Positions 2 to 26,169 of a stretch of 64,000 nt of DNA are shown piece after piece. The position numbers were made by a program, and so were the translations under genes. This DNA comes from Bacteroidota bacterium (GTDB taxonomy: Bacteria; Bacteroidota; Bacteroidia; AKYH767-A; 2013-40CM-41-45). Position 1 is the stretch's first letter. Every line of letters begins with the position of its first letter. The notes beneath the pieces are model-generated. The model was not told the origin of the DNA. It ran no database searches and saw only the letters and a list, made by a program, of their open reading frames with translations. The DNA is taken from positions 4,010 to 68,009 of the forward strand of contig JBDKJS010000083.1 of the NCBI GenBank assembly GCA_039806065.1. The letters run 5' to 3'.

Positions 2-718
2 AATGTAATTAATGCCAATGCATGGGGTTATGATGACATGGTTAGAAAATTTGGTCAACCGGTAGATAGAACTGAGTGGGGCATGTATCCACAAACTTAC
101 AATGCCTATTACAATCCATCGAACAATGAAATATGTGTTCCGGGTTGCAATATCTATGTACCAGGATTTGAACTAGCCGATGACGCTGTACTCTACGGCA
201 TCATTGGTGGTTCTACTTTTGGTCATGAAATAACGCACGGTTTTGATGACCAAGGTTCACAATACGATGAGAATGGAAACCTTAACAATTGGTGGACTGC
301 AGAAGATAAAAGGAAATTTGGAGAAAAAACTAAATTAATTGTACAACAATTTAACAATTACACGGTATTAGACAGCATTCATGTAAATGGCGATGCCACT
401 CAAGGAGAAAACATTGCCGATTTAGGCGGTGTGGTAATGGGATATGAAGCCTTTAAGAAGACACCACAATATAAAAACAATGAGATAATAGCCGGTCTCA
501 CACCCGATCAACGCTTCTTTTTAGGCTATGCCTATGCATGGATGGTAAACCGAAGACCAGAAGCCATGCAACGGATGATCTTGACAGATGTTCATGCACC
601 TGCACAATGGCGTATTAATGGTCCCCTGAGCAATATGCCAGAGTTTTATAAAACATTTGATGTGAAGGAAGGCGATAAAATGTATAGACCAGATAGCATG
701 CGAGTAAAGATTTGGTAG
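2..718 (+). CDS. M13 family zinc metallopeptidase (neprilysin/PepO-like), C-terminal part; 5' end lies outside the window
   Basis: Frame is open from nt 2. HEITHGFD zinc-binding HExxH motif. NGENIADLGG (ENxADxGG) and C-terminal RPDS..VKIW end are typical of the M13 family. Confidence 0.85.
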   Translation, partial: NVINANAWGYDDMVRKFGQPVDRTEWGMYPQTYNAYYNPSNNEICVPGCNIYVPGFELADDAVLYGIIGGSTFGHEITHGFDDQGSQYDENGNLNNWWTAEDKRKFGEKTKLIVQQFNNYTVLDSIHVNGDATQGENIADLGGVVMGYEAFKKTPQYKNNEIIAGLTPDQRFFLGYAYAWMVNRRPEAMQRMILTDVHAPAQWRINGPLSNMPEFYKTFDVKEGDKMYRPDSMRVKIW

Positions 719-775: not shown

Positions 776-876
776 ACACCACTTGACCATGCCTAGCCAC
801 TCTTGAAAGTGAAAAAGTTATTGCGCTCTAATTTATTGTGGCATGCCAATCAAATTTATACCTTTCCATTTTTCAA

Positions 877-2391
877 ATGAACCCAAGCAGCACTGAAATA
901 TTATTCTTTAATCCCAGAGCCTTAGAGCACAAGCCTCGCATTCCAAATAGTTTGCTTCAAGTAGCGGCCAGTATTGACCAGGATCACCGGTGGCATTTGG
1001 TAGATGGGAATTTAGAAACAGAACCTTTGACAGCCATAGCGGTCCTTCTTGAAAAATATCCGATCAAAATATTTGCCTGTACAGTAATGCCAGGGCCACA
1101 GCTTAGGCAAGCCATTCCCATATCCAAATGGATGAGGGAACACTACCCTGCTGTGATTGTGGTATGGGGAGGTTATTTTCCCAGCAACCATGCACAAGTA
1201 GTATTGGGTAGTGGCTATGTAGATTTCATCATCAACGGCATGGGCGATAAGGCTTTTCCGCTATTGGTAAAAAAAATACTCGCCAACGAAACCGACTACA
1301 ATACGGTACCAAATTTAATATTTATACAATCACATAAATTAGTAAAGACTCCGAAAGATGAAATTTATAACTTAGATGAGTTGCCGGCATTACCCTATGA
1401 AAAACTAAACTCCATATATTCATTAGAAAAATACCTGGGTAAAACCTACTTAGGAAAAAAAACAATAGCCTACCACAGTAGTTTTGGATGTCCTTTTACA
1501 TGTTCATTTTGTGCAGTGGTGCCCATTTACAATGCAAGATGGAAGGGCAAAGCAGCCACTTTAGTATATGAGGATATAATGCGACTGAAAACGCAACATG
1601 GAGCCGATGCCATCGAATTTCATGACAATAATTTTTTTGTTAGTGAAAAGCGCACGCAAGAATTTTCAACATTAATAGCACCACATAACATGGTATGGTG
1701 GGGTGAAGGGCGGATAGATACAATTGATCGCTATAGCGATCACACCTTACAAACAATGCGCCAAAGTGGGTGTAAGATGATATTTTTTGGGGCTGAAACT
1801 GGCAACGATGCGGTATTAAAAAAAATGGATAAAGGCGGAACTCAAAGTGGTGCACAAATACTTCGTTTTGCAAAGCGAATGTTAGAATTTGATATCATTC
1901 CTGAATATTCCTTTGTATTAGGAACGCCAGCAGAAAGTGAAGCAGCCTCCTGGCGGCAGATAAAAGAAGACATTGCATTTATTAGAAAGGTTAAAGACAT
2001 CAACCCATCAGCAGAAATAATTATTTACATCTACAGTCCAGTGCCCACAGAAGGGAGCACACTATTTAGTCAAGTAAAAGCTACAGGCTTTAATTTTCCA
2101 CAAACGCTTGAAGATTGGTTGACCCCAGCATGGGAAAATTTTGACTTAAGAAAAAATCCACTCACACCATGGCTTACTTCGGAAATGATTCAGCATATAA
2201 AAGATTTTGAAACAGTATTGAATGCCCGATTCCCAACCATATCAGACATCAGACTTAACCAGATGCAGCGCAGCACCTTGCAAAGGTTGGGCTATTTAAG
2301 GTACCATACGAAGATTTACCGAGCACCATATGAATTGAAGTTATTACAAAAAATTTGGAAATATCGACAACCAGAAACCGAAGGCTTCTAA
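877..2391 (+). CDS. B12-binding domain radical SAM protein (class B radical SAM), paralog 1
   Basis: N-terminal cobalamin-binding-type Rossmann region (ILFFNP..., VDFIINGMGDKAF). Radical SAM core with CxxxCxxC = CPFTCSFC. ATG at 877 chosen; the ORF-track longest start at 838 is GTG. Confidence 0.8.
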   Translation: MNPSSTEILFFNPRALEHKPRIPNSLLQVAASIDQDHRWHLVDGNLETEPLTAIAVLLEKYPIKIFACTVMPGPQLRQAIPISKWMREHYPAVIVVWGGYFPSNHAQVVLGSGYVDFIINGMGDKAFPLLVKKILANETDYNTVPNLIFIQSHKLVKTPKDEIYNLDELPALPYEKLNSIYSLEKYLGKTYLGKKTIAYHSSFGCPFTCSFCAVVPIYNARWKGKAATLVYEDIMRLKTQHGADAIEFHDNNFFVSEKRTQEFSTLIAPHNMVWWGEGRIDTIDRYSDHTLQTMRQSGCKMIFFGAETGNDAVLKKMDKGGTQSGAQILRFAKRMLEFDIIPEYSFVLGTPAESEAASWRQIKEDIAFIRKVKDINPSAEIIIYIYSPVPTEGSTLFSQVKATGFNFPQTLEDWLTPAWENFDLRKNPLTPWLTSEMIQHIKDFETVLNARFPTISDIRLNQMQRSTLQRLGYLRYHTKIYRAPYELKLLQKIWKYRQPETEGF

Positions 2392-2393
2392 CT

Positions 2394-3056
2394 ATGAATA
2401 AGGTATTTAAAAAAATATTGAATAATACGTACAAGCCACTGCTGCAGCAATATTTAAAAAAAGACCGCAGCTATACCTGGAAAAATATTAACTTAAGCAT
2501 ACCAGCTGGCATTTTTCATCCCAAATTTTTTTTTAGTACTCAATTGCTTTTGCGATTCCTCTCAGCGGTTGATTTAAATAATAAAAAGATCATTGAAATC
2601 GGTTGCGGTTCGGGACTAATTAGTATTTACTGTGCGCAACAACAGGGCATGGTAACGAGTGTAGATATTAATACAGCAGCCGTAAAATGTACAGCCTTAA
2701 ATGCATCAATAAATAATGTAGCCATCAATGCTTTAGAAAGTAATTTATTTGCTAATATTCCAAATCAAGAATTTGATATCCTCATCATTAATCCACCCTA
2801 TTATGCAGGCGCCATTCACCAACCAGCAGACCATGCATGGTACGCTGGTCCCAATTATGAATACTTTTATCAATTATTTGAGCAACTTCCCAATTATATG
2901 AATAGCAGCAGCCGGGTTTTCATCATCCTATCGGAAGAGGGACCCACGGACTTAATCAAAAAGCTGTGCTTACCTCATTTTACTATTTATAAAATTCATA
3001 CTTTTAACAAGTGGCTCGAAAAAAATCATATTTTTGAAATCACCCTTTCTCTATGA
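2394..3056 (+). CDS. MTS-type class I SAM-dependent methyltransferase with NPPY motif (amino-group N-methyltransferase signature)
   Basis: Motif I EIGCGSGLIS and motif IV ILIINPPYY, as in RsmC/RlmG/PrmC-type enzymes. ATG lies 2 nt after the upstream stop. Confidence 0.75.
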   Translation: MNKVFKKILNNTYKPLLQQYLKKDRSYTWKNINLSIPAGIFHPKFFFSTQLLLRFLSAVDLNNKKIIEIGCGSGLISIYCAQQQGMVTSVDINTAAVKCTALNASINNVAINALESNLFANIPNQEFDILIINPPYYAGAIHQPADHAWYAGPNYEYFYQLFEQLPNYMNSSSRVFIILSEEGPTDLIKKLCLPHFTIYKIHTFNKWLEKNHIFEITLSL

Positions 3057-4018
3057 ATAGTTTTGTTCCATCACTTGCGCCCGAAGAAATAATCCAACAG
3101 ACAGATGTGGGATTATCAATCCTTCATACCTTAGTTTACTTTGACTTATTCAAACATCCACTCACTGCTAATGAGATTGTAAAATACCAATTCAAAAGCA
3201 GTGCGACCGCATTACAAATAAGCGAAACATTGGATGAGTTGCTTCGATTGCGAATGATTAAAAACAGCAATGGTTATTTTTCACTTTATACTAGTGGTGA
3301 ATATTTAGAGCGAAGGCTTAATGGAGAAAGACAAAGTCGCAAGGCGATGGCCATTGCCAGACATAAAAGTAAAATTATAGCCTTATTTCCCTTTGTTCGA
3401 GGAGTTGCCATTTCAGGATCATTATCAAAAGGATATACTGATAAAGATGGCGATATTGATTACTTTATTATTACCTCCCCAAATAGGTTGTGGACATGCA
3501 AACTAATTTTAATGTTATATAAAAAAATATTTTTACTCAATAGCAGAAAACATTTTTGTTTAAACTACTTTATATCAAACGACCAACTTACCATTCCAGA
3601 TAAAAATATTTTTACCGCAATAGAAATTGCATTTTTGAAATGCACTTACAATCAATCACAAATAGATCAATTTAATAGAGCCAATAGCTGGATAGCTACA
3701 TTTTTACCCATTCACAGTTTTATATCAGGCGTTGGAACAAATCCTTATAGAGAAAGTAAAATAGAGTGGCTTTTCAAAGGCTGGGTAGGAAATATATTTG
3801 AAAAATTTTCTTATAAGATTTTAAAATTTCATAAAAGTGTAAAATTTAAACATTACCATCCTGCGCAAGTCAATATCAATTTACGGTCTACAAGTACTGC
3901 ATCAAAACACCATCCATTAGGTTACCAACAGCGGGTATTAAGTGCCTTTGCCGAAAGATGTGAAAAAATTAATTCCGAATATTTAGCATCCATGCATCGT
4001 GATATTACTCACTCATAG
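3053..4018 (+). CDS. Pol-beta-superfamily nucleotidyltransferase domain protein with N-terminal helical/winged-helix-like region
   Basis: ISGSLSKGYTDKDGDIDYFII matches the hG[GS]-x9-13-DhD nucleotidyltransferase signature. Start ATG overlaps the upstream stop (ATGA), indicating translational coupling. Confidence 0.7.
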   Translation: MNSFVPSLAPEEIIQQTDVGLSILHTLVYFDLFKHPLTANEIVKYQFKSSATALQISETLDELLRLRMIKNSNGYFSLYTSGEYLERRLNGERQSRKAMAIARHKSKIIALFPFVRGVAISGSLSKGYTDKDGDIDYFIITSPNRLWTCKLILMLYKKIFLLNSRKHFCLNYFISNDQLTIPDKNIFTAIEIAFLKCTYNQSQIDQFNRANSWIATFLPIHSFISGVGTNPYRESKIEWLFKGWVGNIFEKFSYKILKFHKSVKFKHYHPAQVNINLRSTSTASKHHPLGYQQRVLSAFAERCEKINSEYLASMHRDITHS

Positions 4019-5429
4019 TTACCATTTACATTTCGATCAAAAACAATTATTACTTGGCAAACCCTATCCCCCATTGGGGATGCTATATGCATCGGCAGTA
4101 CTTCAACAAGCAGGCATGGAAGTAGCCTGTCACGATCCAATGTTTAGTAAAACCTTGGCACCTTTTACCACAGCATTGCACCAGCATCAACCAAATTATA
4201 TGATCGTATATGATGATGGCTTTAATTATTTAAATAAAATGTGCCTAAGTAATATGCGCGATGCAAGTATTAGGATGGCAAAGGAAGCAAAGTTATTATA
4301 CAAGTGTATAACTATAATAGTGAGCAGCGATAGCAGTGATAGACCTCTTGATTACCTTCAAAACGGATTTGACTATGTAATAGCTGGTGAAGGAGAAATG
4401 GCCCTATTACAGCTAATCAATACTATAAATGGGGGAGGCAACGGGGCTGCGAGTCCAAGTGTGATCACCATGCTAAATGAAACCTTGGTTCAAAATACCA
4501 AATTGAAGGTGATGGATCAACTTGATATATTACCGCACCCGGCATGGGAACAAATAGATTTAGTGCCCTATAAAAAAACATGGCTGAAAAAGCATGGTTA
4601 TTTTTCACTTAACCTAAGTACTACCAGAGGTTGCCCTTTTAAATGCAATTGGTGTTCAAAACCTATTTATGGTAACAGGTACCATGCTCACAGTGTAGGC
4701 TATGTAATAGAAGAGATTCGCAAACTACAATCATTGGGAGCCACTCATCTTTGGATCACGGATGATATTTTTGGTTTAAAACCGGGTTGGGTAAAATTGT
4801 TTGCAGATACAATCAAGGCTGAGGGAATAAAGATTAGCTATAAAATTCAATCGCGTGTGGATTTATTACTTGAAGAAACACAGATAAAACACTTATCCAC
4901 CAGCGGTTGTGATGAGGTATGGGTAGGGGCCGAAAGTGGTTCGCAGCGAATACTTGATGCCATGGATAAAGGCACCAAGGTGGAACAAATAATGGAAGCC
5001 TGTTCATTGATGAAGTTGCATGGTATAAGACCGTGTTTATTCCTACAATTTGGCTACTTGGGCGAGCAAGCTGAAGATATAAAACAAACTATTGAAATGG
5101 TAAATTACATTAAACCATATGATATAGGTGTTTCGGTTTCTTATCCCTTGCCCGGAACTGAATTTTATGAATCAGTAAAATCGCAGCTGGTATCAAAAAC
5201 ACATTGGGTAGATAGTGATGAATTGGTAACACTTTACCAAGCCACCTACCCTACCGACTGTTATAAAAAACTACAACGCTATGTTCATGGAAAATTTAGA
5301 TGGGCACAATTTAAATCTAATCTCAGACAAGGGCGCTTGAATCATTGGCGGTACCTATTTACAGCCCCTTACCATGGGCTCCACAGTTTTTTGCTTAAGC
5401 ATCAATTGAAAACATATTTTAGGTTATAG
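3999..5429 (+). CDS. B12-binding domain radical SAM protein (class B radical SAM), paralog 2
   Basis: N-terminus ILLTHSY...PPLGMLYASAVLQQAGMEV is a canonical B12-domain start. CPFKCNWC is the CxxxCxxC cluster. GTG start overlaps the nucleotidyltransferase gene by about 20 nt. Confidence 0.75.
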   Translation: MILLTHSYHLHFDQKQLLLGKPYPPLGMLYASAVLQQAGMEVACHDPMFSKTLAPFTTALHQHQPNYMIVYDDGFNYLNKMCLSNMRDASIRMAKEAKLLYKCITIIVSSDSSDRPLDYLQNGFDYVIAGEGEMALLQLINTINGGGNGAASPSVITMLNETLVQNTKLKVMDQLDILPHPAWEQIDLVPYKKTWLKKHGYFSLNLSTTRGCPFKCNWCSKPIYGNRYHAHSVGYVIEEIRKLQSLGATHLWITDDIFGLKPGWVKLFADTIKAEGIKISYKIQSRVDLLLEETQIKHLSTSGCDEVWVGAESGSQRILDAMDKGTKVEQIMEACSLMKLHGIRPCLFLQFGYLGEQAEDIKQTIEMVNYIKPYDIGVSVSYPLPGTEFYESVKSQLVSKTHWVDSDELVTLYQATYPTDCYKKLQRYVHGKFRWAQFKSNLRQGRLNHWRYLFTAPYHGLHSFLLKHQLKTYFRL

Positions 5430-5515
5430 CACAACCCTTACAAAAAAGAAACCCCGCCCGGGGGAGAGCGAGGTTTACACACACTAAGCTATGAAAATAA
5501 AAAACGGTAGTTCGA

Positions 5516-7036
5516 TTAATCGGGGTTGTCGTGCAAAAAGCTATTATTGGTTCGCAGCTGCAATCCGTGATCTTGGTCACTATTGAGTGAGGTTCTTGAT
5601 AGGTGTTGTTGGCTACTATGTTGTGCTTCATCCAGTTTCATTTTCTGGCGTTCGAAAGCTGGAATATTTTCGAGTTCGGCCAACTTCTCTGGATTATTAT
5701 AGCTCATGGCTTTTAATCTTTTCAAGCGTTCTTGTGATCGTTCGAAAGCTGCTTGTTCCATAGCTGAATCATCATTCGCCATTTTTTTTTCAGCAAATGG
5801 ATTTACTGTTCTCCCTATCTGAGGCTTAACATTATCTGGCAATGGAGGATTTGGATTAATTTCAAATTCTACTGTATGATCGTTAGTATTGGTAGTCCCC
5901 AGGTCAAAATATTTAATTTCAGAATCGGCTGTATTGCCAGTAGTATTGACTTTGATTTGAGGATCTAAAGAATGTGCTTGAGCATTATATGGAGCTATTT
6001 CAGGGTTGGTTTTTGGCAGGGGTGTATTGTTTAAATCATGCTTGATAGGTACATTTTGAAGTTCTTTATCTAATTCCAATTTGGTTTTAAATCCTGTGGC
6101 AATAAGCGTTACACCTACCTTGCTGCCCATATTGGCATCATAACAATTTCCCCAAATAATTTCGGCACTCATACCGGCTGCCTCTTGAACATGATCTGTT
6201 ATTTGACCAATCTCATCCATGGTTATTTCTTCATCGCCATAACTGATATTTAAAAGTATATAGCGAGCACCCTTTATTTCATTATCATTGAGTAAAGGAG
6301 AGGCCAAAGCATTGGAGATGGCATCCATAGCTCTGTTAGATCCTTGCCCGAAACCAGTTCCCATAATAGCAGCACCTGAATCTTGAACAGCGGTTCTTAC
6401 ATCTTCAAAATCTACATTGATATAACCGGTAACAGTAATTATTTCTGCGATTCCTTTGGCTGCAGTGGTCAATACTTCATCAGCATGAGCGAATGCAGTA
6501 CTTATTTTTTGGTTTCCAAAGAGTTCTCTTAGTTTTTCATTTTTAATGATAATGATGGCATCTACATTTTTTTTAAGAGCCTCAATACCACTGTTTGCTG
6601 CTTCAAAACGTTTCTTGCCTTCAAATGGAAAAGGAGTAGTAACAATACCAACAGTGAGAATTCCTAATTCGCGTGCCTGTTGCGCTATGATGGGAGCTGC
6701 GCCAGTACCTGTGCCACCGCCCATACCAGCGGTAATAAAAACCATTTTGGTATTTTTATTCAGTACATCTCTAATTTCATCTAGACTTTCAACGGCAGCA
6801 TTACACCCCACTTCAGGTTTTGATCCAGCGCCATAGCCAGCGGTGAGTGTAGTGCCCAACTGAATTCTGGTAGGAATTGGACTCACCTCCAATGCTTGAG
6901 CATCGGTATTACACACTATAAATTCCACTCCCTTAATTCCCTGTCGGAACATGTGGTTAACGGCATTGCTTCCACCGCCACCAACGCCTATGACCTTGAT
7001 GATTGAAGAATCTGCACTGGGTATATCAAATTGCAT
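5516..7036 (-). CDS. ftsZ: Cell division protein FtsZ
   Basis: GVGGGGSNAV and GGGTGTGAAP tubulin-signature motifs. C-terminal NIPAFERQK peptide. Terminal gene of the dcw cluster. Confidence 0.95.
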   Translation of the reverse strand: MQFDIPSADSSIIKVIGVGGGGSNAVNHMFRQGIKGVEFIVCNTDAQALEVSPIPTRIQLGTTLTAGYGAGSKPEVGCNAAVESLDEIRDVLNKNTKMVFITAGMGGGTGTGAAPIIAQQARELGILTVGIVTTPFPFEGKKRFEAANSGIEALKKNVDAIIIIKNEKLRELFGNQKISTAFAHADEVLTTAAKGIAEIITVTGYINVDFEDVRTAVQDSGAAIMGTGFGQGSNRAMDAISNALASPLLNDNEIKGARYILLNISYGDEEITMDEIGQITDHVQEAAGMSAEIIWGNCYDANMGSKVGVTLIATGFKTKLELDKELQNVPIKHDLNNTPLPKTNPEIAPYNAQAHSLDPQIKVNTTGNTADSEIKYFDLGTTNTNDHTVEFEINPNPPLPDNVKPQIGRTVNPFAEKKMANDDSAMEQAAFERSQERLKRLKAMSYNNPEKLAELENIPAFERQKMKLDEAQHSSQQHLSRTSLNSDQDHGLQLRTNNSFLHDNPD

Positions 7037-7062
7037 ATATGTTAAGTTAAGTATTTGTTTAA

Positions 7063-8376
7063 TTATTTAATTTCTTTATCTTTTTCTTCTGCTGGGAAGA
7101 AAATATCAAGCAAGGTGCCTATTCCAAAAATGTCTGTTCTTGGATTTTTACCTTTTTCCACGACTTTATCACCGGGTGTGTTAGCAATTATTTCGTCTTT
7201 AAATCTATCCTCATTTTGAAAACCTTTCATTACCAAGCCCACCGATGTTGCATACATAGGGCTTTTGAGGTCATCAGTACCTTTAGCTATGTGTTCATTT
7301 GGATAACCTATTCTTGCTTGGAGTCCGGTCATCATTTCGGCACGGTGACGGATGTGACGCAGCTGTGCACCTCCACCGGTGAGTACCAAGCCGCAGCCTA
7401 ATTTTTTATCAAACTTAGAGGCCTTTATTTCATAATATACGCTATCCAATATCTCATCAACCCGGGCTTGAATGATTTGAGCCAATGTTTTCACTGAAAT
7501 TTCTTTAGGAGGGCGACCTCTTAGGCCAGGAATGGAAACAACTTCATTTTCAGCGTTGCTGGTGGCCAGGGCCGATCCAAATTTTATTTTTAATTGTTCG
7601 GCTTGCGATGTGATGATGCCACAACCCTCTTTGATATCACTGCTAATAATATTTCCTCCAAATGGAATTACTGCCGTATGCCGGATGATGTTGTTTTGAA
7701 AGATAGCAATATCAGTAGTGCCACCACCAATATCTACCAACACCACGCCAGCCTCTTTTTCTTCATCGGTTAATACTGCATCGCTACTTGCCAATGGTTC
7801 AAGAAAAAGACCTTTGCAAATTAAACCTGCCCGCTCTACACATTTTTTGATATCTCTAATTGCATTGATATGACCGGTAATTACATGACAGTCGGCCTCT
7901 ACTCTTGAGCCACTTCTGCCAATTGGGTTGATTACACCAGTTTCATTATCAATTTTAAATTCCTGTGGGATGATATGAATAATTTCTTCGCCACTAGGCA
8001 TGGCTATTTGTTCCAATGATTGAACAATTTTATCTATATCTACTTGTTCAATTTCATTATCATTATCTACTCCTCTAATTAAAGATCCGCGCTGTTGCAT
8101 ACTTTTTATATGCTGGCCAGCAATTCCCACGTATACTTCTTTAATAGTGATACCAGAATTTTCTTCGGCTTCCTTTACAGAAAGGATTATAGAATCTACG
8201 GTAGATTTAATGTTGGCAACTACGCCTCTCATCACACCCACTGATTCTGACTTACCCATACCGATGATATCAAGTTTGCCGTATTCATTTCTTTTGCCCA
8301 CGATAGTGGCAATTTTAGTAGTACCTATATCTAGGCCAACTACAATTTTTTCGCTTAGTGATTTGTTAGTATCCAC
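7063..8376 (-). CDS. ftsA: Cell division protein FtsA
   Basis: Actin-like ATPase with IVVGLDIGTTKI N-terminus. Position between ftsQ and ftsZ. GTG start. Confidence 0.9.
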   Translation of the reverse strand: MDTNKSLSEKIVVGLDIGTTKIATIVGKRNEYGKLDIIGMGKSESVGVMRGVVANIKSTVDSIILSVKEAEENSGITIKEVYVGIAGQHIKSMQQRGSLIRGVDNDNEIEQVDIDKIVQSLEQIAMPSGEEIIHIIPQEFKIDNETGVINPIGRSGSRVEADCHVITGHINAIRDIKKCVERAGLICKGLFLEPLASSDAVLTDEEKEAGVVLVDIGGGTTDIAIFQNNIIRHTAVIPFGGNIISSDIKEGCGIITSQAEQLKIKFGSALATSNAENEVVSIPGLRGRPPKEISVKTLAQIIQARVDEILDSVYYEIKASKFDKKLGCGLVLTGGGAQLRHIRHRAEMMTGLQARIGYPNEHIAKGTDDLKSPMYATSVGLVMKGFQNEDRFKDEIIANTPGDKVVEKGKNPRTDIFGIGTLLDIFFPAEEKDKEIK

Positions 8377-9166
8377 AGACTACCTGATCTTTAAATTTTA
8401 AATTAATTGTCTTATATTTTTCCCATCCGCACATATTAAAACCCTTTGTATAAATTACAAGGAGATTTTGCAATTTTGCTTCCATATCTAATCCATTTCC
8501 AAAGTAAATAATATGGTTTCCTACTCTTGGTACCAAAGTAAAATTTCCATCAGAATTGACATAGATTTGTTGGAGCTGAGCTTTGAGTAATTCATCTTTT
8601 TCAATTGCTTTCACCAAGTTAAACAGTGCTTCCACCGGAAGAGCCTGATTCATTTGATCATTTGTCAACACTCTAATTTTATGGTCGCTTAATTTACTTG
8701 TCAAATGCCCATTAGCTACAGGAACTAAAGGTGTGTATGAATCGCTTAGCGGCATAAAATAGCCTTCATTATCTATATAAAAACTTTCCCCCTTATGATT
8801 AAAAATACGTAGCACAGGAACTCTTTGCGATACGTAAATGTTTAGAACGCCATCAACGGTTGAAAATACTTCAGCATTGGCCACATGCGGGTTGTTTTCA
8901 ATTATACTTTCCAACACTGCTGTGTTAATTGCATTTAATTTGCTTTTTTTTATGTCACCAAATTTATAGGCTACAATATTTTTAATTTGCTGTACTGTTA
9001 CGAAGTTGACTCCTGCAGTATCATCAATATTAATTTGGAGTGATTTAAATTTTCTTTCGCTGTGTTGAAAGGAGGTGAAGCCAACAGAAATAAAAAATAG
9101 CAACATCACACCTAGCCAGGTGATGGCTTTGAGGATGCGCTGTTTATCTATTGCTTTTGGTGGCAT
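8366..9166 (-). CDS. ftsQ: Cell division protein FtsQ (POTRA-containing)
   Basis: N-terminal TM anchor. Size and position between murC and ftsA. Confidence 0.75.
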   Translation of the reverse strand: MPPKAIDKQRILKAITWLGVMLLFFISVGFTSFQHSERKFKSLQINIDDTAGVNFVTVQQIKNIVAYKFGDIKKSKLNAINTAVLESIIENNPHVANAEVFSTVDGVLNIYVSQRVPVLRIFNHKGESFYIDNEGYFMPLSDSYTPLVPVANGHLTSKLSDHKIRVLTNDQMNQALPVEALFNLVKAIEKDELLKAQLQQIYVNSDGNFTLVPRVGNHIIYFGNGLDMEAKLQNLLVIYTKGFNMCGWEKYKTINLKFKDQVVCGY

Positions 9167-9178
9167 GGGTAGAGGTAC

Positions 9179-10558
9179 TTAAGCTTGTGAGAAGTGTTGT
9201 GCAATAGGCACCACGAGGGTGTCTATATCGCCTGCTCCAAGGATGAGCAAAATTTCAACTTTTCTTTCTTTTATTTGATGAATGATGGATTCTTTTGTAC
9301 ACATGTGCTTGTTAGTGACGGTAATTTTATCATAAATTATTTTTGATGTTACCCCTTCGATTGGCATTTCACGAGCTGGATAAATATCCATGAGCCATAC
9401 CTCATCGAGCATGGAAAGGCTTTCGGCAAAACCATCTACAAAATCGCGTGTACGTGAGTATAGGTGCGGTTGAAAGATACCTGTTATTTTTTTTTGAGGG
9501 AATAGTTCTTTGGCTGCTGTTATGGCTGCAGTTAATTCTGTAGGGTGATGTGCATAATCATCTATGATGGTATTTATTTTATTATGAAGCACCAATTCAA
9601 ATCTTCTTTTTACTCCTTTATAATTTTGCAAAGCCATTTGAATTTGATCGAATGGTAAATTTCGGATTCTTGCAATGGCGATAGCTGCTATGGCATTTTC
9701 AATATTATGCCGCCCGGGTAAAAATAATTTAAAACCACTGTATTGTTCATTTACCCCCACATAATCAAAACAAAATGCGCCTTCGTGAACATGGATGTTA
9801 GTGGCATGGCACTGAGCTGTGCTTAGGAGTCCATAAGTGACCACATTGGCCTTGACCGGTGCCAGGCTCAATTGATGGTGCAGCAACAAAGTGCCCTCCT
9901 CATTCACCTGTTGGGCAAATTGCTGATAAGTTTGGTGCATGGATTTTTCATCGCCATAGATGTCAAGATGATCTGGATCCATGCTGGTAATAACAGCAAT
10001 GTGAGGATACAGTGTCAAGAATGATTTATCATACTCATCGGCTTCTACTACAATGGGATGATCGGCTGATGTGTGGAGTGGGAGCAGCAAATTACTTTTA
10101 TAATTATTAGCAATACCCCCCAAGAATGCAATGCACGTATCGTTGCAGTGGGTAAGTACATGTGCCACCATACTACTGGTAGTAGTTTTGCCATGAGTGC
10201 CTGCTACTGCAATGGTAAGTCGCTGTTTAGTGATCCAACCTAATAAAATACTACGCTTAACAATATTAAAGTTTTGGTCATTTAGCTTCTTATATATTTT
10301 TAAGTTTAGTGGCACTGCGGGTGTGCGCACCACTAGTGTTTCACTTTTAACAGCTGCCAATCTATCCACCACTGATTCATCATCCTCATAATGTACTTTT
10401 ATTCCCTCTGCTTCTAGTTCAAGGGTAAGGTTGGTTTGCGTTTTATCATAACCGCTCACCTTGCAACCCATTAAATTAAAATATCTTGCCAAGGCACTCA
10501 TGCCTATTCCTCCAATTCCAAGGAAATAAAGATGGGTAATCTGCTTCAAAGGATTCAT
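9179..10558 (-). CDS. murC: UDP-N-acetylmuramate--L-alanine ligase
   Basis: GIGGIGMSALA N-terminal motif. GTHGKTTT P-loop. Mur ligase architecture. Confidence 0.9.
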   Translation of the reverse strand: MNPLKQITHLYFLGIGGIGMSALARYFNLMGCKVSGYDKTQTNLTLELEAEGIKVHYEDDESVVDRLAAVKSETLVVRTPAVPLNLKIYKKLNDQNFNIVKRSILLGWITKQRLTIAVAGTHGKTTTSSMVAHVLTHCNDTCIAFLGGIANNYKSNLLLPLHTSADHPIVVEADEYDKSFLTLYPHIAVITSMDPDHLDIYGDEKSMHQTYQQFAQQVNEEGTLLLHHQLSLAPVKANVVTYGLLSTAQCHATNIHVHEGAFCFDYVGVNEQYSGFKLFLPGRHNIENAIAAIAIARIRNLPFDQIQMALQNYKGVKRRFELVLHNKINTIIDDYAHHPTELTAAITAAKELFPQKKITGIFQPHLYSRTRDFVDGFAESLSMLDEVWLMDIYPAREMPIEGVTSKIIYDKITVTNKHMCTKESIIHQIKERKVEILLILGAGDIDTLVVPIAQHFSQA

Positions 10559-11661
10559 GGGCGGGCAACTTTATAAATTTGATCCACTATATGAGCAGCT
10601 GCGTTGGGCAATGCTAAGTTTTTAATATTTTTTGCTAATGAAGCAGCATGTTCAGGATTGTTGATGAGTTGTGTAAGCAATGGTGCTAACTTAGTAGCGA
10701 GATCGTGATCGGGAATTATTTCAGCGGCACCGTCTTTAACCAAGGCCAAGGCATTTTTGGTTTGATGATCTTCAGCTACGTTTGGAGAAGGAACTAGTAC
10801 CGCAGGTTTGCCTACCATGCAAAGTTCACTAATGGTGCCCGCACCTGCCCTACTCACTATGATGTTTGCTGCGGCATAAGCGTCATTCATATTATTGATG
10901 AAAGGCGCAACAAAAACATTGCTATAATTTATGGCTGCATTACTTGCAGTGGAGGCATATAGTTTTCCGGTTTGCCAAATTAGTTGAATATTATGTTCTT
11001 TGAAAAACGGCAGTAATGCTGTTACCGCTAGGTTTATGCTTCTGGCACCTAAGCTTCCTCCTAATATTAAAATTGTTTTATACTGAGATAAAAGGTTAAA
11101 TTTAGCAATTGCATCACCTTGTTCACTTTGTAAATTTTTCACCAGGTCCCTAATGGGGTTACCTGTAACCACAATTTTAGCAGGCTCAAAAAATTTCTCC
11201 ATTCCATAATAGGCTACACATACGAGGCTGGCTCGTTTGGCTAAAATTTTATTGGTTATACCGGCATAGGAATTTTGTTCTTGAATAACCGTAGGAATAC
11301 GGAGTAATGAAGCTGCAAATAACAATGGGCCGCTTGCATAGCCGCCTACCCCAACAGCCACATGTGGTTTCAACCGCTTAAGAAGTGCTATGCTTTTAAC
11401 AATACTAAAAAATATTTTTAGCGGCAGTAATAAATTTTGGAAAGAAAGACTTCTTTGAAAGCCTGCTATATTTAGGCCTGTAATTTCATAGCCAGCTTCC
11501 GGTACTTTTTGCATTTCCATTTTACCGAGTGCTCCCACAAAGTGAATGGTTGTATGGTTGTTTACGAATTTAAGTTGATTGGCAATAGCAATAGCAGGAA
11601 AAATGTGCCCGCCTGTGCCACCGCCACTAATAATCACTTTTAATTTAGGAAACTGTTCCAT
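10555..11661 (-). CDS. murG: UDP-N-acetylglucosamine--N-acetylmuramyl-(pentapeptide) pyrophosphoryl-undecaprenol GlcNAc transferase
   Basis: GGTGGHIFPA motif. ATG at 11661 chosen, 1 nt after the ftsW stop; the ORF track extends to a TTG at 11709. Confidence 0.9.
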   Translation of the reverse strand: MEQFPKLKVIISGGGTGGHIFPAIAIANQLKFVNNHTTIHFVGALGKMEMQKVPEAGYEITGLNIAGFQRSLSFQNLLLPLKIFFSIVKSIALLKRLKPHVAVGVGGYASGPLLFAASLLRIPTVIQEQNSYAGITNKILAKRASLVCVAYYGMEKFFEPAKIVVTGNPIRDLVKNLQSEQGDAIAKFNLLSQYKTILILGGSLGARSINLAVTALLPFFKEHNIQLIWQTGKLYASTASNAAINYSNVFVAPFINNMNDAYAAANIIVSRAGAGTISELCMVGKPAVLVPSPNVAEDHQTKNALALVKDGAAEIIPDHDLATKLAPLLTQLINNPEHAASLAKNIKNLALPNAAAHIVDQIYKVARP

Positions 11662-11662
11662 A

Positions 11663-12826
11663 TTATGCTGCTTCGGTGTTTTCCAATGCCGATTTTTTTT
11701 CGAGCGCAATTTGATGGCTCACACTTAGTATAATTCCAAGCGCCAATCCATTAAAAATTATATTGGTACCACCCATGCTTACTAATGGAAGTGGTTGGCC
11801 TGTAACTGGAAAAAGATTAACAGCAACTGCCATGTTGATCATTGCCTGAAACACCAAAAGAAAGCTGTAGCCAAATGCTAGTAAGGTGCCCAATGCTTTA
11901 GGATTGTAATGCAAAAATTTGATGGTTCTAAAAAAAATGAGGAGGTAGCAAATAATTACTATTGACGAAAACAATATGCCATATTCTTCCACAATTATGG
12001 CAAAGATGAAGTCGGAATAAGGATGTGGCAAGTAGTTTCTCATATCACTATTCCCAGGTTTTTTTCCAGTAAGTCCACCGGTGGCAACAGCAATTTTTGC
12101 TTGAACAGCCTGATAGTTATCCTTATCATCTCCACTAGTAAAATTTTCGATTCGGGCCATCCAAGTAGCGGTTCGCCCATCATTTCCTAACAATTTCATT
12201 GTTCCGATAAACAATGAGCAACACACAAGCACTATACCCACTAAATACAAAAGGTACTTGAATTTAATATTGGCTACAAAGAGCATTACCAAACAAGTAA
12301 CAAATAACATAGCAGCTGTAGAAAGGTTAGCCGGTAAAATAAGCGCACACACCAGCAGAATAGGAATAAATACCGGCACTAGAAGTTCTTTAAAAGAAAG
12401 TTGCTGATCTATTTTTTTGCTTAAGGCTCCAGCCAGGTAAAGAATGATGGCCACCTTTGCTATATCAGAAGTTTGAATGGTATTACCAATGATAGGTATC
12501 GTTAACCAACGGCTTGCCGAATTCAAATTAGTTCCAAATACCAATGTAAATCCAAGCATAATGATAGACACCAACAATATCAATGGACCAAACCTTGTGA
12601 AGATGGTGTACTTCATTTTATTCACTAGATAAACTATAAATAAACCAAGGATTAAAGTGAAGGCATGCCTAAACAAATAAAATTCAGTATTCCCTTCTTG
12701 TTTTTTATAGGCAAGTGTACCGGTGCTGGTATAAACTGCCACAGCAGAAAACAATGTTAGAATAAAGATGGCAATCCAAATCCCCTTATCCCCACTAAGA
12801 TATTTATCAATCCATGTCCTATTCAT
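11663..12826 (-). CDS. ftsW: Peptidoglycan glycosyltransferase FtsW (SEDS family)
   Basis: Polytopic membrane protein between murD and murG. SEDS-like C-terminal PLPLVSMGGT-type segment. Confidence 0.85.
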   Translation of the reverse strand: MNRTWIDKYLSGDKGIWIAIFILTLFSAVAVYTSTGTLAYKKQEGNTEFYLFRHAFTLILGLFIVYLVNKMKYTIFTRFGPLILLVSIIMLGFTLVFGTNLNSASRWLTIPIIGNTIQTSDIAKVAIILYLAGALSKKIDQQLSFKELLVPVFIPILLVCALILPANLSTAAMLFVTCLVMLFVANIKFKYLLYLVGIVLVCCSLFIGTMKLLGNDGRTATWMARIENFTSGDDKDNYQAVQAKIAVATGGLTGKKPGNSDMRNYLPHPYSDFIFAIIVEEYGILFSSIVIICYLLIFFRTIKFLHYNPKALGTLLAFGYSFLLVFQAMINMAVAVNLFPVTGQPLPLVSMGGTNIIFNGLALGIILSVSHQIALEKKSALENTEAA

Positions 12827-21941: not shown

Positions 21942-22556
21942 ATGATTGAGCCAATTAAAGAAGCATCATTTGTCATTTCAAGTCCTGAATACACCAAGTG
22001 TCCAAAACCAGATCGGGCAGAATATGCCTTTATAGGCCGAAGCAATGTTGGTAAATCATCGCTCATCAACATGCTCACAGGGGTAAAAGGATTGGCAAAA
22101 ACATCGGCCATGCCAGGTAAAACGCAATTAATCAATCATTTTTTGATTAATAACAGTTGGTTTCTGGTAGATTTACCTGGATATGGATTTGCCAGGATAA
22201 GCAAGGCACAGCGTGAAGTGTTTGAAAGCATGATTAAAAATTATTTGCTCAAACGCAATAATCTCATCAACACTTTTATTCTGATAGATAGCCGCCATGC
22301 ACCACAAGCTATTGATTTGGCATTCATTGAATGGATGGGAACAGTTTCCTTACCGTTTAGTATTGTATTTACCAAGAGTGATAAACTAGGAAAAACCAAA
22401 TTGCAAGAACACACTACAGCTTATAAGAATCAACTCCTTGAAACTTGGGAAGAATTACCACCCATATTTATTACCTCTTCAGAGAAAAAGCTGGGGCGCG
22501 ATGAAATATTAAAATACATAGGCACACTTCATCCTTTATTTACAGCAGATCGCTAA
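21942..22556 (+). CDS. yihA: Ribosome biogenesis GTP-binding protein YihA/EngB
   Basis: [13 protein letters not shown]1 motif, DLPGYG G3 motif, TKSDK G4 motif. Confidence 0.85.
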
Positions 22557-23461
22557 CGGAGGAGCTGAATTTTTTTATTCACTATTGCATTTCCAAATTG
22601 CAGATGAAGGGTGTACCACCCATTTTCCAAGTCTGCTACATCAATTAAATCGGTAGGAGCATTCAATGTAAGGTGTTTTACCTGTCGTCCCAAAAGATCA
22701 GCTATACTGATTTCAGCATGATTAAAGGGAGTACGGATTCCGGTGAATTTAATCCAGTCTCTTGCTGGATTGGGCATTACCTGCACCTGATCAGAAAGGT
22801 TGATGGGAGCTTCACCAACCACACCTTCAAACTTTAAATCATCAAGACGAAGGATCGTTCCTATTTTAGGTGCATTAAACACAATAGGGCTGCTGGTAAT
22901 AAAAATTAATGACGAATCAGGATCCAAATTAGGATTAACATAAATCAGGTTAAGACTGAGTGTATCCCAACCGGTGCTGGTTTTCCCTATTTTTTGAAAT
23001 GCATAAGCCACGGTATCGCGCTTGCCAGTTCCGGCATTGCGCTTAAACAGTTTAATATCAACCCAAGCCGTATCAGTTCCTACAGGTGCATACTGATACA
23101 AGCATTTAAATGTATTCCATTTGGTTCCTGTAGGTTTTCCTCCTATCACCGAAAAGCTTATGCCATTTACAACGATATCGCCATTAGATATGGCAGCCGG
23201 AATAGGGATAGGCACAGTGATTGGGGGTACTATTTTACCAAAAGTAGTTAGTTTTGCTGCTGCCACACCGCTACCTACCGTTACAGTTTCCTTGGTTACT
23301 GATGTAGCATCAAGTGTATCAGTTGTTTTCCAAAATTCTGGCTCTTCATAAGCACCACCACCAGCAGGTATCCAATTTTCATAATCACCATTGGCTATGT
23401 TTTGTGCAGTAATTTGAAGCGATAGATAAAAAGAAAAAATGAGCAACAAATGTTTTTTCAT
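22553..23461 (-). CDS. Secreted protein of unknown function with T9SS C-terminal sorting domain
   Basis: Signal peptide [21 protein letters not shown]-terminal Por-secretion-tail-like module ([12 protein letters not shown]...LLGRQVKHL...). ATG at 23461 chosen. Confidence 0.65.
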
Positions 23462-23506
23462 ACGTAATTGATATTTATTCAAAGGTAAGAATTTATATGG
23501 TAAGGG

Positions 23507-24382: not shown

Positions 24383-24488
24383 AGATCAAAAATATTCAAC
24401 GGCAAGATTGAAAAAAATTTTCAACAAAAACTTTTTTTCAATAATCATTTTAATACATTTATCGCATCAATTAATTTATTCAATCATC

Positions 24489-25208: not shown

Positions 25209-25211
25209 TAA

Positions 25212-26150: not shown

Positions 26151-26169
26151 TTAGTGGCAATTTATAAAA

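Follow-up and report, generated by a model that had tools for sequence, protein, structure and literature searches.

What is the role of a nucleotidyltransferase whose gene overlaps a methyltransferase gene at one end and a radical SAM gene at the other, and on which class of substrate does it act? The question is raised by a gene, here called WH-NTase, in a window of 64,000 nucleotides (the whole stretch of DNA that was analyzed) from a Bacteroidota contig.

The gene and its operon

The open reading frame described in an earlier note on this DNA is present with the limits given there, and its 321-residue product is identical to MAG protein P0001 ('hypothetical protein RIQ89_846', Bacteroidota). 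Both overlaps described in that note were also found, i.e. the shared ATGA with the upstream methyltransferase gene and the GTG at which rSAM_C, the radical SAM gene downstream, begins 20 nt inside the NTase gene (Table 1). The GTG start is supported by the orthologs of rSAM_C, in which a conserved N-terminus ('ILFTHSYF...') lies 2-4 residues past the start codon. The end of the operon is marked by a hairpin and T-run on the minus strand. In a sigma-70 promoter scan, which does not cover Bacteroidota promoters, sites were no commoner than expected by chance.

Table 1. Features of the WH-NTase operon, with nucleotide positions in the window.
Feature	Positions	Strand	Remarks
rSAM_B, B12-binding-type radical SAM enzyme	838..2391	+	First operon gene; probable true start ATG 877; CPFTCSFC at nt 1489-1512
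MTS/HemK-like N-methyltransferase	2355..3056	+	Probable true start ATG 2394; NPPY motif at nt 2790-2801
WH-NTase gene	3053..4018	+	321 aa plus stop; ORF call; unnamed Bacteroidota family
ATGA start/stop overlap	3053..3056	+	ATG of NTase at 3053, TGA of upstream methyltransferase
N-terminal winged helix, residues 20-81 (H1, b1, H2, H3, b2, b3)	3110..3295	+	Predicted structure
Long linker helix, residues 82-110	3296..3382	+	Predicted structure; corresponds to NTase-core helix alpha-1
Pol-beta NTase core, residues 111-200	3383..3652	+	
Signature ISGSLSKGYTDKDGDIDYFII, residues 120-140	3410..3472	+	hG[GS] (G122, S123) and [DE]h[DE]h (D134-I-D136-Y)
C169-L-N171 on core strand beta-3	3557..3565	+	Expected place of third carboxylate h[DE]h; placement inferred from topology
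D183...E191 (IPDKNIFTAIE)	3599..3625	+	Conserved acids after beta-3, in loop and helix; E191 in 262/262; position 183 D in 205, E in 50
Helical C-terminal domain, residues 201-321	3653..4015	+	Helices 244-264, 270-276, 291-320; no Pfam match
Conserved S284-K-H-H-P288 motif	3902..3916	+	K285 in 250/262, H286 in 207/262, H287 in 255/262
NTase 3' end and rSAM_C GTG start, 20-nt overlap	3999..4018	+	ORF calls and ortholog N-termini
rSAM_C, class-B-like radical SAM enzyme	3999..5429	+	CPFKCNWC at nt 4632-4655; sub-threshold B12-like N-terminal domain
GC-rich hairpin, then T-run	5449..5476	-	11-bp stem, 6 GC pairs; between convergent rSAM_C and ftsZ

Fold, domains and family

The structure predicted with AlphaFold2 (pLDDT 90, pTM 0.86) contains an N-terminal winged helix and a Pol-beta NTase fold, the latter as proposed earlier and in agreement with the superfamily definition of Kuchta et al. 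2009 (PMC2794190). A wHTH-like N-terminal segment of about 110 residues had also been proposed; a winged helix does exist at approximately residues 20-81, but residues 82-110 form one long linker helix. The NTase core is the most conserved segment of the family proteins.

Within the winged helix, Y29, F33, P36 and E41 are conserved. The domain is acidic, with a mean net charge of -3.1 (range -7 to +1), and H3, the 'recognition' helix, is poorly conserved (mean charge -2.3, conservation 0.39, lower values of 0.29 each being seen only in the N-terminal tail and in the 46-52 loop). The winged-helix fold of DNA-binding wHTH domains is thus present, while a conserved basic recognition helix or wing is not. 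Since it is acidic and its 'recognition' helix is poorly conserved, the domain appears unlikely to bind DNA. The system as a whole does not resemble one for gene regulation.

The family comprises 1,812 representatives at E<=1e-30 (50% identity clusters), and at least 554 species genomes, almost all from Bacteroidota, carry a member. Among the cultured carriers is Kordia periserrulae DSM 25731 (locus L055). No Pfam or NCBIfam model matches it above threshold. The window protein scores 17.9 bits against Pfam PF01909 (NTP_transf_2), below the cutoff of 21 and over residues 104-145 only; weak matches to the same model were obtained for all 37 aligned family members (E<=0.1, best E-value 6e-6), and for a few homologs a PF01909 label had been precomputed. 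When the PDB was searched by sequence, either with this protein alone or with the family profile, only noise was obtained, with no NTase and no solved relative, and Foldseek against the PDB gave nothing at E<=0.001 and no full-length match. Nothing relevant was found in the literature on the combination of WH-NTase with a radical SAM gene.

The putative active site

Conservation was assessed in 262 family members, 30-46% identical to the window protein. The segment ISGSLSKGYTDKDGDIDYFII fits the minimal Pol-beta NTase signature, as the earlier note had it, and its GS and DxD residues are retained throughout the homologs (G122, D134 and D136 in all 262 sequences each, with S or T at position 123 in 259). 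The hG[GS] element, S121-G122-S123, is situated at the start of the second core helix, and the [DE]h[DE]h element, D134-I-D136-Y, at the start of the second core strand (136-141). Among the 47 non-overlapping window ORFs of 150 aa or more, the strict pattern hG[GS]-x9-13-[DE]h[DE]h was found in none and the looser G[GS]-x9-13-D-x-[DE] in three; when the NTase sequence was shuffled, the two patterns arose in 0.4% and 2.1% of cases, respectively. When the family profile was aligned by hhalign with sequences of KNTase and AadA, G122, D134 and D136 fell on the GS/DxE block of the former and the GS/DxD block of the latter. Only this block of 29-32 residues was aligned, so the third catalytic residue could not be placed by this route.

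In the superfamily, the third carboxylate is defined as an h[DE]h motif on the third core strand (PMC2794190). The corresponding strand of WH-NTase, residues 169-175, reads C-L-N-Y-F-I-S and has no conserved acid, while C169 is found in 262 and N171 in 261 of the 262 sequences. The canonical third carboxylate thus appears to be replaced by Asn171, and as a consequence the reaction may depart from classical NMP transfer, or the domain may be nucleotide-binding only. The earlier note had placed a candidate for the third acid in NYFISNDQLTIPD; within this stretch D177 shows no conservation and position 183 holds an acidic residue in 255 of the 262 sequences, while the strictly invariant acid, E191, lies 8 residues beyond D183. 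Judging from conservation, E191 is the best candidate for a catalytic base or third metal ligand, and the S284-K-H-H-P288 motif is a candidate phosphate- or substrate-binding site.

Partner genes

An ortholog of rSAM_C is located directly downstream of the NTase gene in 72 out of 75 loci, and likewise in the fusion loci described below, making it a fixed, near-obligate partner. The three loci without it are L068, L083 and L084, of which the last two have housekeeping neighbors. The gaps between the two genes peak at -4, -8 and 0 nt, and 47 of the 72 are negative, i.e. overlapping, a count biased towards overlap since gene starts were taken as the longest ORF. The methyltransferase gene is directly upstream of the NTase gene in only 45 out of 69 loci, and the gap can be as wide as 293 nt. 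Of the coupling on both sides claimed in the earlier note, the radical SAM side consequently holds across the family and the methyltransferase side does not. Inspection for NTase-rSAM_C fusions covered the best 150 of 6,433 representatives.

Among solved structures, the best sequence relative of rSAM_C is a protein identified in PMC12931638 as the MCR glutamine C-methyltransferase, and the aminoglycoside-sugar enzyme AprD4 is among the nearest. Both radical SAM enzymes of the window have sub-threshold matches to the NCBIfam phosphonate P- and C-methylase families, and rSAM_B occurs within 9 kb of the NTase in 25 of the 42 fully flanked loci. [ND]PP[YFW] is kept in 48 of 50 orthologs of the methyltransferase. 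Its matches are to N-methyltransferases, with the gentamicin N-methyltransferase among them and the HemK2/Mtq2 glutamine N-methyltransferases the closest.

Surface-glycan context

The NTase was also found in natural fusions, namely with GT1 in two independent assemblies, with a Bac_transf phosphoglycosyl transferase (PGT) on a single contig, and with a class-I methyltransferase in two clusters (P0180 and P0267), one of which was read on six contigs, including one of 3.58 Mb. The fused methyltransferase was considered as a counterpart of the NPPY methyltransferase of the window and rejected, as it is not its ortholog; this fusion hence does not tie the window methyltransferase to the NTase. Among the genes of the fusion loci (L089-L093) are Wzz, Wzy_C, a WbaP-like PGT, GT4, RgpF, an epimerase and a carbamoyltransferase.

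In 33 out of 42 fully flanked species-genome loci, one or more GT, GT-C, Wzy or Wzz genes lie within 10 kb, mostly 2-6 kb upstream and abutting the module. In the remaining nine no glycan gene was found within this distance, and the background estimate for such genes is crude. Linkage to PGT, GT, Wzy/WaaL-type and Wzz genes, as in a Wzy-type polysaccharide locus, is thus seen in the family, namely in the fusion loci and in these 33. In the window itself, the operon has a peptidase gene on one side and the cell-division (dcw) cluster on the other, with no adjacent glycosyltransferase. A Wzy_C gene (Pfam) and an adjacent, weakly Wzz-like ORF (phmmer E 4e-6, no Pfam match) are about 21 kb away, so for this copy the glycan linkage is weak.

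The natural fusions, together with the Wzz, Wzy_C and GT neighbors, argue for a role in surface-polysaccharide tailoring and, for the substrate class left open in the earlier note, point to a surface-glycan pathway and away from proteins and the ends of nucleic acids. A lipid pathway was considered as well, in view of hopanoid-like HpnJ/HpnR/BchE matches and an MMPL transporter in one lineage. It was dropped because the NCBIfam scores were far below their cutoffs, MMPL occurs in one of the 42 loci, and the fusions point to glycans.

Proposed function

The explanation we favor, to which we give about an even chance, is that WH-NTase is catalytically competent and forms with rSAM_C a tailoring module of a Wzy-type surface polysaccharide (O-antigen-like or EPS), the NTase representing a previously undescribed and uncharacterized, Bacteroidota-wide family. 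In this proposal, an NTP with Mg2+ would be bound by G122/S123 and D134/D136, in an active site that may be completed by E191, perhaps together with D183 and with C169/N171, an unusual pair on beta-3. The acceptor of the NMP would be a hydroxyl or phosphate, either on a sugar building block or on a lipid-linked glycan intermediate, by analogy with the structurally nearest enzymes, ANT(4'), LinB and AadA, which act on sugar hydroxyls. The nucleotide could subsequently serve rSAM_C as a recognition handle and/or leaving group, as in the precedent of the CMP tag that Fom1 provides for Fom3. The accompanying methyltransferases and further B12-radical SAM enzymes might add N-, O- or C-methyl groups, and the acidic, variable winged helix would be a protein-contact or structural module and not a DNA reader. 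A more specific version, which we regard as tentative and rather doubtful, is that an O-nucleotidylated sugar provides the handle or leaving group for deoxygenation, rearrangement or C-methylation by the radical SAM enzyme, yielding an undescribed branched, deoxy or methylated surface sugar, with Cys169 and Asn171 forming a mechanistically distinct site.

Several other explanations were weighed. NTase-fold LicD/FKRP activities are established in glycan decoration, and WH-NTase could be such a phosphotransferase, moving a phospho-substituent from a CDP- or NDP-activated alcohol (e.g. a modified polyol or amino alcohol that the radical SAM enzymes and methyltransferases would supply) onto a glycan with release of NMP. 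This is unlikely, albeit the best placed of the rivals: the glycan-locus context with its GT and PGT fusions agrees with it, the non-canonical third residue N171 would suit altered chemistry, and fukutin and FKRP have been treated as NTase-fold proteins (PMC2794190). Next, and with a small probability, comes a protein AMPylator or regulator in the manner of DrrA, GlnE or MNT, which would nucleotidylate rSAM_C, a GT or a Wzy/Wzz component as a pathway switch, the winged helix docking the target.

The domain could also be a non-catalytic adaptor, which would bind a nucleotide or nucleotide-sugar, or act as a scaffold for the enzymes, and deliver substrate to rSAM_C. The invariant Asn171 at the canonical h[DE]h position and the sub-threshold Pfam score would fit, and NTase-fold families with incomplete carboxylate sets have been predicted inactive (PMC2794190). 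Against this stands the invariance of G122, D134, D136 and E191 throughout the 262 sequences, in the most conserved part of the protein, which is typical of retained catalysis. MMP37/Tam41, predicted inactive in 2009, was moreover later shown to be an active CDP-diacylglycerol synthase, and we consider an adaptor improbable.

A role in RiPP or other protein modification, in which the winged helix would present a precursor peptide for proteusin-like C- and N-methylation and the NTase would modify the peptide, is very improbable. Several B12-radical SAM enzymes together with an N-methyltransferase do recall polytheonamide-type clusters, and the closest relatives of rSAM_C and of the MTS methyltransferase both modify glutamine. 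Nevertheless, neither a conserved precursor peptide nearby nor RRE-type structural matches were found, and a search of 81 loci, up to 3 kb from the clusters, gave no recurrent small ORFs (25-140 aa). Finally, a defense, toxin-antitoxin or signaling NTase (CD-NTase/CBASS, MNT-HEPN) or a resistance ANT has next to no probability, as the shared minimal GS...DxD signature and the presence of MNT and ANT among the structural neighbors are outweighed by a gene context that effectively refutes it, with a negative PADLOC defense-system search and no cGAS/DncV-like fold, defense model or effector/Cap genes.

If the more specific version above is right, an undescribed sugar would decorate the surface polysaccharides of hundreds of Bacteroidota species from the environment. 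The pairing of WH-NTase with rSAM_C in surface-glycan loci offers a testable function for a set of orphan B12-type radical SAM enzymes, as well as a testable hypothesis of a putative Bacteroidota surface modification, which would bear on recognition by phages and predators and on the part that aquatic and soil Bacteroidota play in carbon cycling. If nucleotidylation gates the radical step, the 'nucleotide handle' logic of fosfomycin biosynthesis would extend to glycan tailoring, and the Pol-beta NTase superfamily would gain one more active-site variant. If not, WH-NTase would simply be one of the ordinary accessory enzymes found in variable polysaccharide loci.

Comparison with known systems

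The two-domain O-nucleotidyltransferases ANT(4') (kanamycin NTase, 6nlt), LinB (3jyy) and AAD(9)/AadA (6sxj, 7uy4) resemble WH-NTase at the fold level, and its C-terminal helical domain is similar in architecture to theirs. However, identity is 12-15%, with sequence likeness confined to the GS...DxD block; the three lack an N-terminal winged helix, and the strand of the third acid bears Cys and Asn in WH-NTase. While they are stand-alone resistance genes, WH-NTase is found in a biosynthetic operon with radical SAM genes, and it matches none of the NCBIfam resistance models (ANT, Lnu).

The AMPylators DrrA/SidM (6yx5, 3nku) and GlnE (3k7d, 1v4a) occur in other domain contexts and target Rab1 and glutamine synthetase, respectively, whereas the WH-NTase loci have no counterpart of such a target or regulatory partner. 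MNT antitoxins (7ae9, 8xeh, 5yep, 1no5) are about 100-150 aa long and paired with a HEPN toxin gene; WH-NTase, in contrast, has 321 aa, three extra structural elements and a radical SAM partner, and a HEPN neighbor was seen in none of the loci inspected. The 'MNT toxins' of the earlier note should read antitoxins, as in HEPN-MNT pairs MNT is the antitoxin according to the PDB entry titles.

Tam41/MMP37, the mitochondrial CDP-diacylglycerol synthase, consists of an NTase domain plus a winged-helix domain. WH-NTase is like it in this combination of NTase fold and winged helix and, apparently, in having a non-canonical carboxylate set, a single active-site carboxylate being listed for MMP37 (PMC2794190). 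With LicD, fukutin and FKRP it shares the DxD motif and the position of an NTase-fold enzyme within glycan biosynthesis (PMC2794190).

The likeness of Fom1/Fom3 to WH-NTase/rSAM_C lies in the logic of the pathway, and the WH-NTase loci contain no PEP mutase or other phosphonate genes. The cytidylyltransferase of Fom1 has a different fold from that of the Pol-beta NTase family protein, so this precedent is one of pathway logic and not of homology. In fosfomycin biosynthesis, Fom1 installs a transient nucleotide (CMP) handle that Fom3, a class-B radical SAM enzyme, needs, with FomD also taking part (PMC8158854). Unlike in the Fom system, the substrate of WH-NTase is probably a sugar or a glycan intermediate.

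Operon structure and gene boundaries

The nucleotidyltransferase gene (NTase) was found as the earlier note had described it, i.e. as a 321-aa ORF at 3053-4018 (plus strand) whose ATG shares the ATGA at 3053-3056 with the TGA of the upstream MTS-type methyltransferase, and which is followed by a radical SAM gene, rSAM_C, with a GTG start at 3999, 20 nt inside the NTase gene. Because the conserved N-terminus of rSAM_C orthologs (M-x-ILFTHSYFLRFDPKQ...) begins 2-4 residues past the start codon, this GTG, from which the window protein reads V-ILLTHSYHLHFDQKQ, is the only start that retains it. The two genes before the NTase, the radical SAM gene rSAM_B and the MTS methyltransferase, probably begin at ATG 877 and ATG 2394, respectively; the latter is 2 nt past the preceding stop, so that the four genes would be packed end to end. 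A hairpin with a T-run behind it follows the peptidase gene that precedes the operon, and a stronger such element separates rSAM_C from the convergent ftsZ gene; these two elements, one at each end, delimit the four-gene operon. The operon abuts what we take, from the translations, to be the dcw cluster of cell-division and cell-wall genes, an adjacency that looks incidental, since the module sits elsewhere in other genomes. Two ORFs of 96 and 84 aa, antisense within ftsZ and ftsA, respectively, translate to low-complexity sequence rich in Pro, Ser and Ile, and most likely are not real genes.

Coordinates of the features discussed (window positions, unless NTase residues are indicated)
Feature	Position	Strand	Remark
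rSAM_B, radical SAM	838-2391	plus	first gene of the operon
MTS methyltransferase	2355-3056	plus	
NTase	3053-4018	plus	
Canonical winged helix	residues ~20-81		AlphaFold2 model
One long helix	residues 82-110		AlphaFold2 model
Alpha/beta core	residues 111-200		AlphaFold2 model
Helical C-terminal domain	residues 201-321		AlphaFold2 model
rSAM_C, radical SAM	3999-5429	plus	
Hairpin and T-run	5449-5476	minus	
Presumed dcw cluster	5516-12826	minus	ftsZ, ftsA, ftsQ, murC, murG, ftsW
96-aa ORF	6546-6836	plus	
84-aa ORF	8147-8401	plus	
T9SS C-terminal-sorting-domain protein	22553-23482	minus	four-gene run, 22553-28173
Class-I SAM methyltransferase	23507-24382	minus	same run
Wzz-like ORF	25212-26150	minus	same run; phmmer E 4e-6, no Pfam match
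Wzy_C+TPR protein	26170-28173	minus	same run; Pfam 58 bits

Family, fold and conserved residues

The NTase motif ISGSLSKGYTDKDGDIDYFII (residues 120-140) is by itself suggestive and not decisive: among 47 non-overlapping window ORFs of at least 150 aa, a looser motif pattern occurred in three and the strict superfamily pattern in none, with 2.1% and 0.4% of NTase shuffles, respectively, matching. The Pfam NTP_transf_2 match at residues 104-145 stays below threshold (17.9 bits, cutoff 21), and searches of NCBIfam, PADLOC and PDB sequences gave no match. This weak NTP_transf_2 signal recurs in all 37 aligned family members, 29 of which also match the Polbeta model. Relatives are numerous, with 1,528 matches from Bacteroidota in a 90%-clustered database, mostly unnamed or annotated as "nucleotidyltransferase domain-containing protein", and 6,433 representatives (E<=1e-3) at 50% identity clustering, 1,812 of these at E<=1e-30. 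They occur in at least 554 species genomes, nearly all Bacteroidota, and span Flavobacteriales, Chitinophagales and Saprospiraceae, among them Kordia periserrulae DSM 25731, which is in culture, and database entries under the name Dokdonia sp. Two MAGs labelled "Bifidobacterium sp." (locus L034) and "Candidatus Methylacidiphilales" (L059) each contain the whole cluster, with proteins 49-88% identical to those of reference cluster L004, which resembles Bacteroidota clusters; a contaminated bin or a wrong label is a likelier explanation here than genuine occurrence beyond the Bacteroidota.

An AlphaFold2 model built from the 37-sequence alignment was confident (pLDDT 90, pTM 0.86) and bore out both fold predictions of the earlier note, namely an N-terminal winged helix and a Pol-beta NTase. 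The protein is only distantly related to any solved structure. Conserved residues of the winged helix (Y29, F33, P36, E41) are located in H1, beta-1 and H2. H3, where a recognition helix would be expected, shows little conservation (0.39) and is acidic (charge -2.3), and the mean net charge of the domain is -3.1 versus +11 for the whole protein; judged from these sequence properties, the domain is unlikely to read DNA and more probably makes protein contacts or has a structural function.

Conservation was counted over 262 family members, 30-46% identical to the window NTase. Strictly invariant are P113, G122, D134, D136, C169 and E191, followed by N171 (261), K126 (260), Ser/Thr at residue 123 (259) and Asp/Glu at residue 183 (255), while in the C-terminal domain H287 is kept in 255, K285 in 250 and H286 in 207. 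The Pol-beta NTase superfamily, as defined by Kuchta et al. (2009; PMC2794190), has hG[GS] before core helix 2, [DE]h[DE]h in strand 2 and h[DE]h, which supplies the third carboxylate, in strand 3; the window NTase shares the first two of these. Strand 3 (169-175) reads C-L-N-Y-F-I-S, and in the model the canonical third-carboxylate position appears to be held by Asn171, beside the invariant Cys. In the stretch NYFISNDQLTIPD, previously proposed to supply the third acid, D183 is mostly conserved, but D177 is not; the strictly invariant acid, E191, lies outside it in the next helix, and N171, D183 and E191 are all candidates for a place at the metal site. Alignment by hhalign to KNTase and AadA was confined to the GS...DxD block.

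Gene neighborhood

In 80 fetched species-genome loci, ORFs were called and classified against reference proteins, and all neighboring ORFs were also clustered without bias. An rSAM_C ortholog (51-59% identical) lies immediately 3' of the NTase in 72 of the 75 loci with enough sequence, with computed gaps clustering at -4, -8 and 0 nt, values biased towards overlap by taking the longest ORF as start. The MTS-type methyltransferase, in contrast, adjoins the NTase upstream in just 45 of 69 loci, where the two genes can be as much as 293 nt apart. The tight coupling on both sides claimed earlier is thus conserved on the rSAM_C side only, and the invariant unit is NTase plus rSAM_C. Within 9 kb in the 42 fully flanked loci, rSAM_C was found in 41, a UbiE-like methyltransferase in 39, the MTS methyltransferase and the radical SAM paralog rSAM_D in 32 each, rSAM_B in 25 and GT1 in 12. 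Unbiased clustering added GT87 (19 loci), GT1/GT4 (22 loci), an EpsG/PMT_2-like membrane protein and a further methyltransferase. The window holds a minimal version of the cluster, its four-gene operon, with no UbiE-like methyltransferase, rSAM_D or GT1 in the 64 kb.

An adjacent rSAM_C is missing from three loci that extend 1.5 kb or more downstream, i.e. L083 and L084 (Saprospiraceae MAGs) and L068; their rSAM_C may be elsewhere in the genome, or these NTase copies may work alone. In L083 the gene adjoins those for gyrB and kynureninase.

An MMPL/Patched/sterol-sensing-domain transporter is encoded directly 5' of the MTS methyltransferase and NTase in one lineage (L008, 6933-9200; L016, 6936-9203). 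It had first suggested a lipid pathway, which was rejected, the transporter being found in 1 of the 42 fully flanked loci; the glycan model leaves it unexplained.

Domain fusions and polysaccharide loci

Among the best 150 of the 6,433 representatives, four exceed the typical 290-350 aa by N-terminal extensions, with the NTase C-terminal, and three of these are clear domain fusions: to a Bac_transf polyprenyl-phosphate phosphoglycosyl transferase (PGT; P0136, E 1e-57), to a GT1/GT4 glycosyltransferase (P0163) and to a class-I SAM methyltransferase (P0180). The fourth, P0173 (387 aa), is truncated and belongs to the same methyltransferase-fusion cluster as full-length P0267 (567 aa). A single contig supports the PGT fusion and two independent assemblies the GT1 fusion, while the methyltransferase fusion forms two clusters, with P0267 on six contigs read, one of 3.58 Mb.

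The fusion loci are Wzy-type polysaccharide loci. Their gene orders are GT1, GT4, Wzy_C, PGT-NTase, epimerase (L089); WbaP-like PGT, GT, Wzy_C, RgpF, Wzy_C, GT1-NTase, radical SAM, carbamoyltransferase, B12-radical SAM (L090); and Wzz, Wzy_C, methyltransferase-NTase, rSAM_C, methyltransferase, rSAM_D (L091-L093). With fusion-locus genes as references, 33 of the 42 fully flanked loci had one or more genes of the GT, GT-C, Wzy, Wzz or PGT type within 10 kb, against a crudely estimated background; such genes cluster 2-6 kb upstream, right next to the module. In the window, the Wzy_C+TPR gene and its weakly Wzz-matching neighbor lie ~21 kb away. Since Wzz and Wzy_C directly precede the module in L091-L093, the four-gene run in the window may belong to this pathway as a portion that became separated.

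Genes for T9SS cargo proteins with a C-terminal Por_Secre_tail or CHU_C domain occur within 10 kb of the module in six of eight distinct contexts (L001-L008, L091-L093), in L092 and L093 directly 5' of Wzz. Such genes are very abundant in Bacteroidota, so the proximity could be due to chance; alternatively, it may point to a connection with the glycan that anchors T9SS cargo.

Partner enzymes and proposed function

The MTS methyltransferase retains NPPY, a hallmark of amino or amide N-methyltransferases, in 48 of 50 orthologs, and its solved relatives are MJ0882, HemK2/N6AMT1, RsmC, PrmA and gentamicin N-methyltransferase. Neither rSAM_B nor rSAM_C matched an NCBIfam model at cutoff. The latter has a CxxxCxxC cluster motif and a B12-like domain below threshold (24.5 bits in the window, cutoff 32.1); its orthologs (e.g. 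L001, 9245-10699) have no Pfam B12-binding match on record, while the paralogs rSAM_B and rSAM_D do score. AprD4 has a degenerate, cobalamin-free Rossmann-like domain; that of rSAM_C may be of the same kind and could bind a nucleotide handle instead of cobalamin. The nearest solved relatives of rSAM_C, all distant, are aminoglycoside-sugar dehydratase AprD4, OxsB and the MCR glutamine C-methyltransferase (9CCB; PMC12931638).

Fold, conservation, adjacency, fusions and context combined point to an active NTase paired with rSAM_C as a surface-polysaccharide tailoring module, a general model to which we give about even confidence. The protein might otherwise be a LicD/FKRP-like phospho-substituent transferase, which we regard as unlikely, or a protein AMPylator, which is less likely again; least probable of these three is a non-catalytic nucleotide-binding adaptor. 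A RiPP pathway is strongly disfavored, as no small ORF (25-140 aa) recurs within 3 kb of the clusters in 81 loci. A defense, toxin-antitoxin or resistance NTase is effectively excluded by the gene context and the lack of PADLOC and NCBIfam matches.

The fold and general reaction type are already known. New are the family, which has no passing model or structure, its domain architecture, the Cys/Asn-bearing third strand of the core, and the fact that in glycan loci it is almost always paired with a single radical SAM lineage; our literature search found nothing relevant on the family or this gene combination.

Enzymes structurally nearest to the NTase add NMP to sugar hydroxyls. For this reason, and given the Fom1/Fom3 precedent, we propose for the tailoring module that the NTase would nucleotidylate a sugar or glycan intermediate, the nucleotide then giving rSAM_C a handle, a leaving group or both. 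The precedent comes from the fosfomycin pathway, in which CMP is attached by Fom1 and taken off again by FomD once Fom3 has methylated the tagged molecule (PMC8158854). Fom3 is thus a documented case of a class-B radical SAM enzyme needing a nucleotide-tagged substrate, whereas for NTase and rSAM_C the counterpart is proposed.
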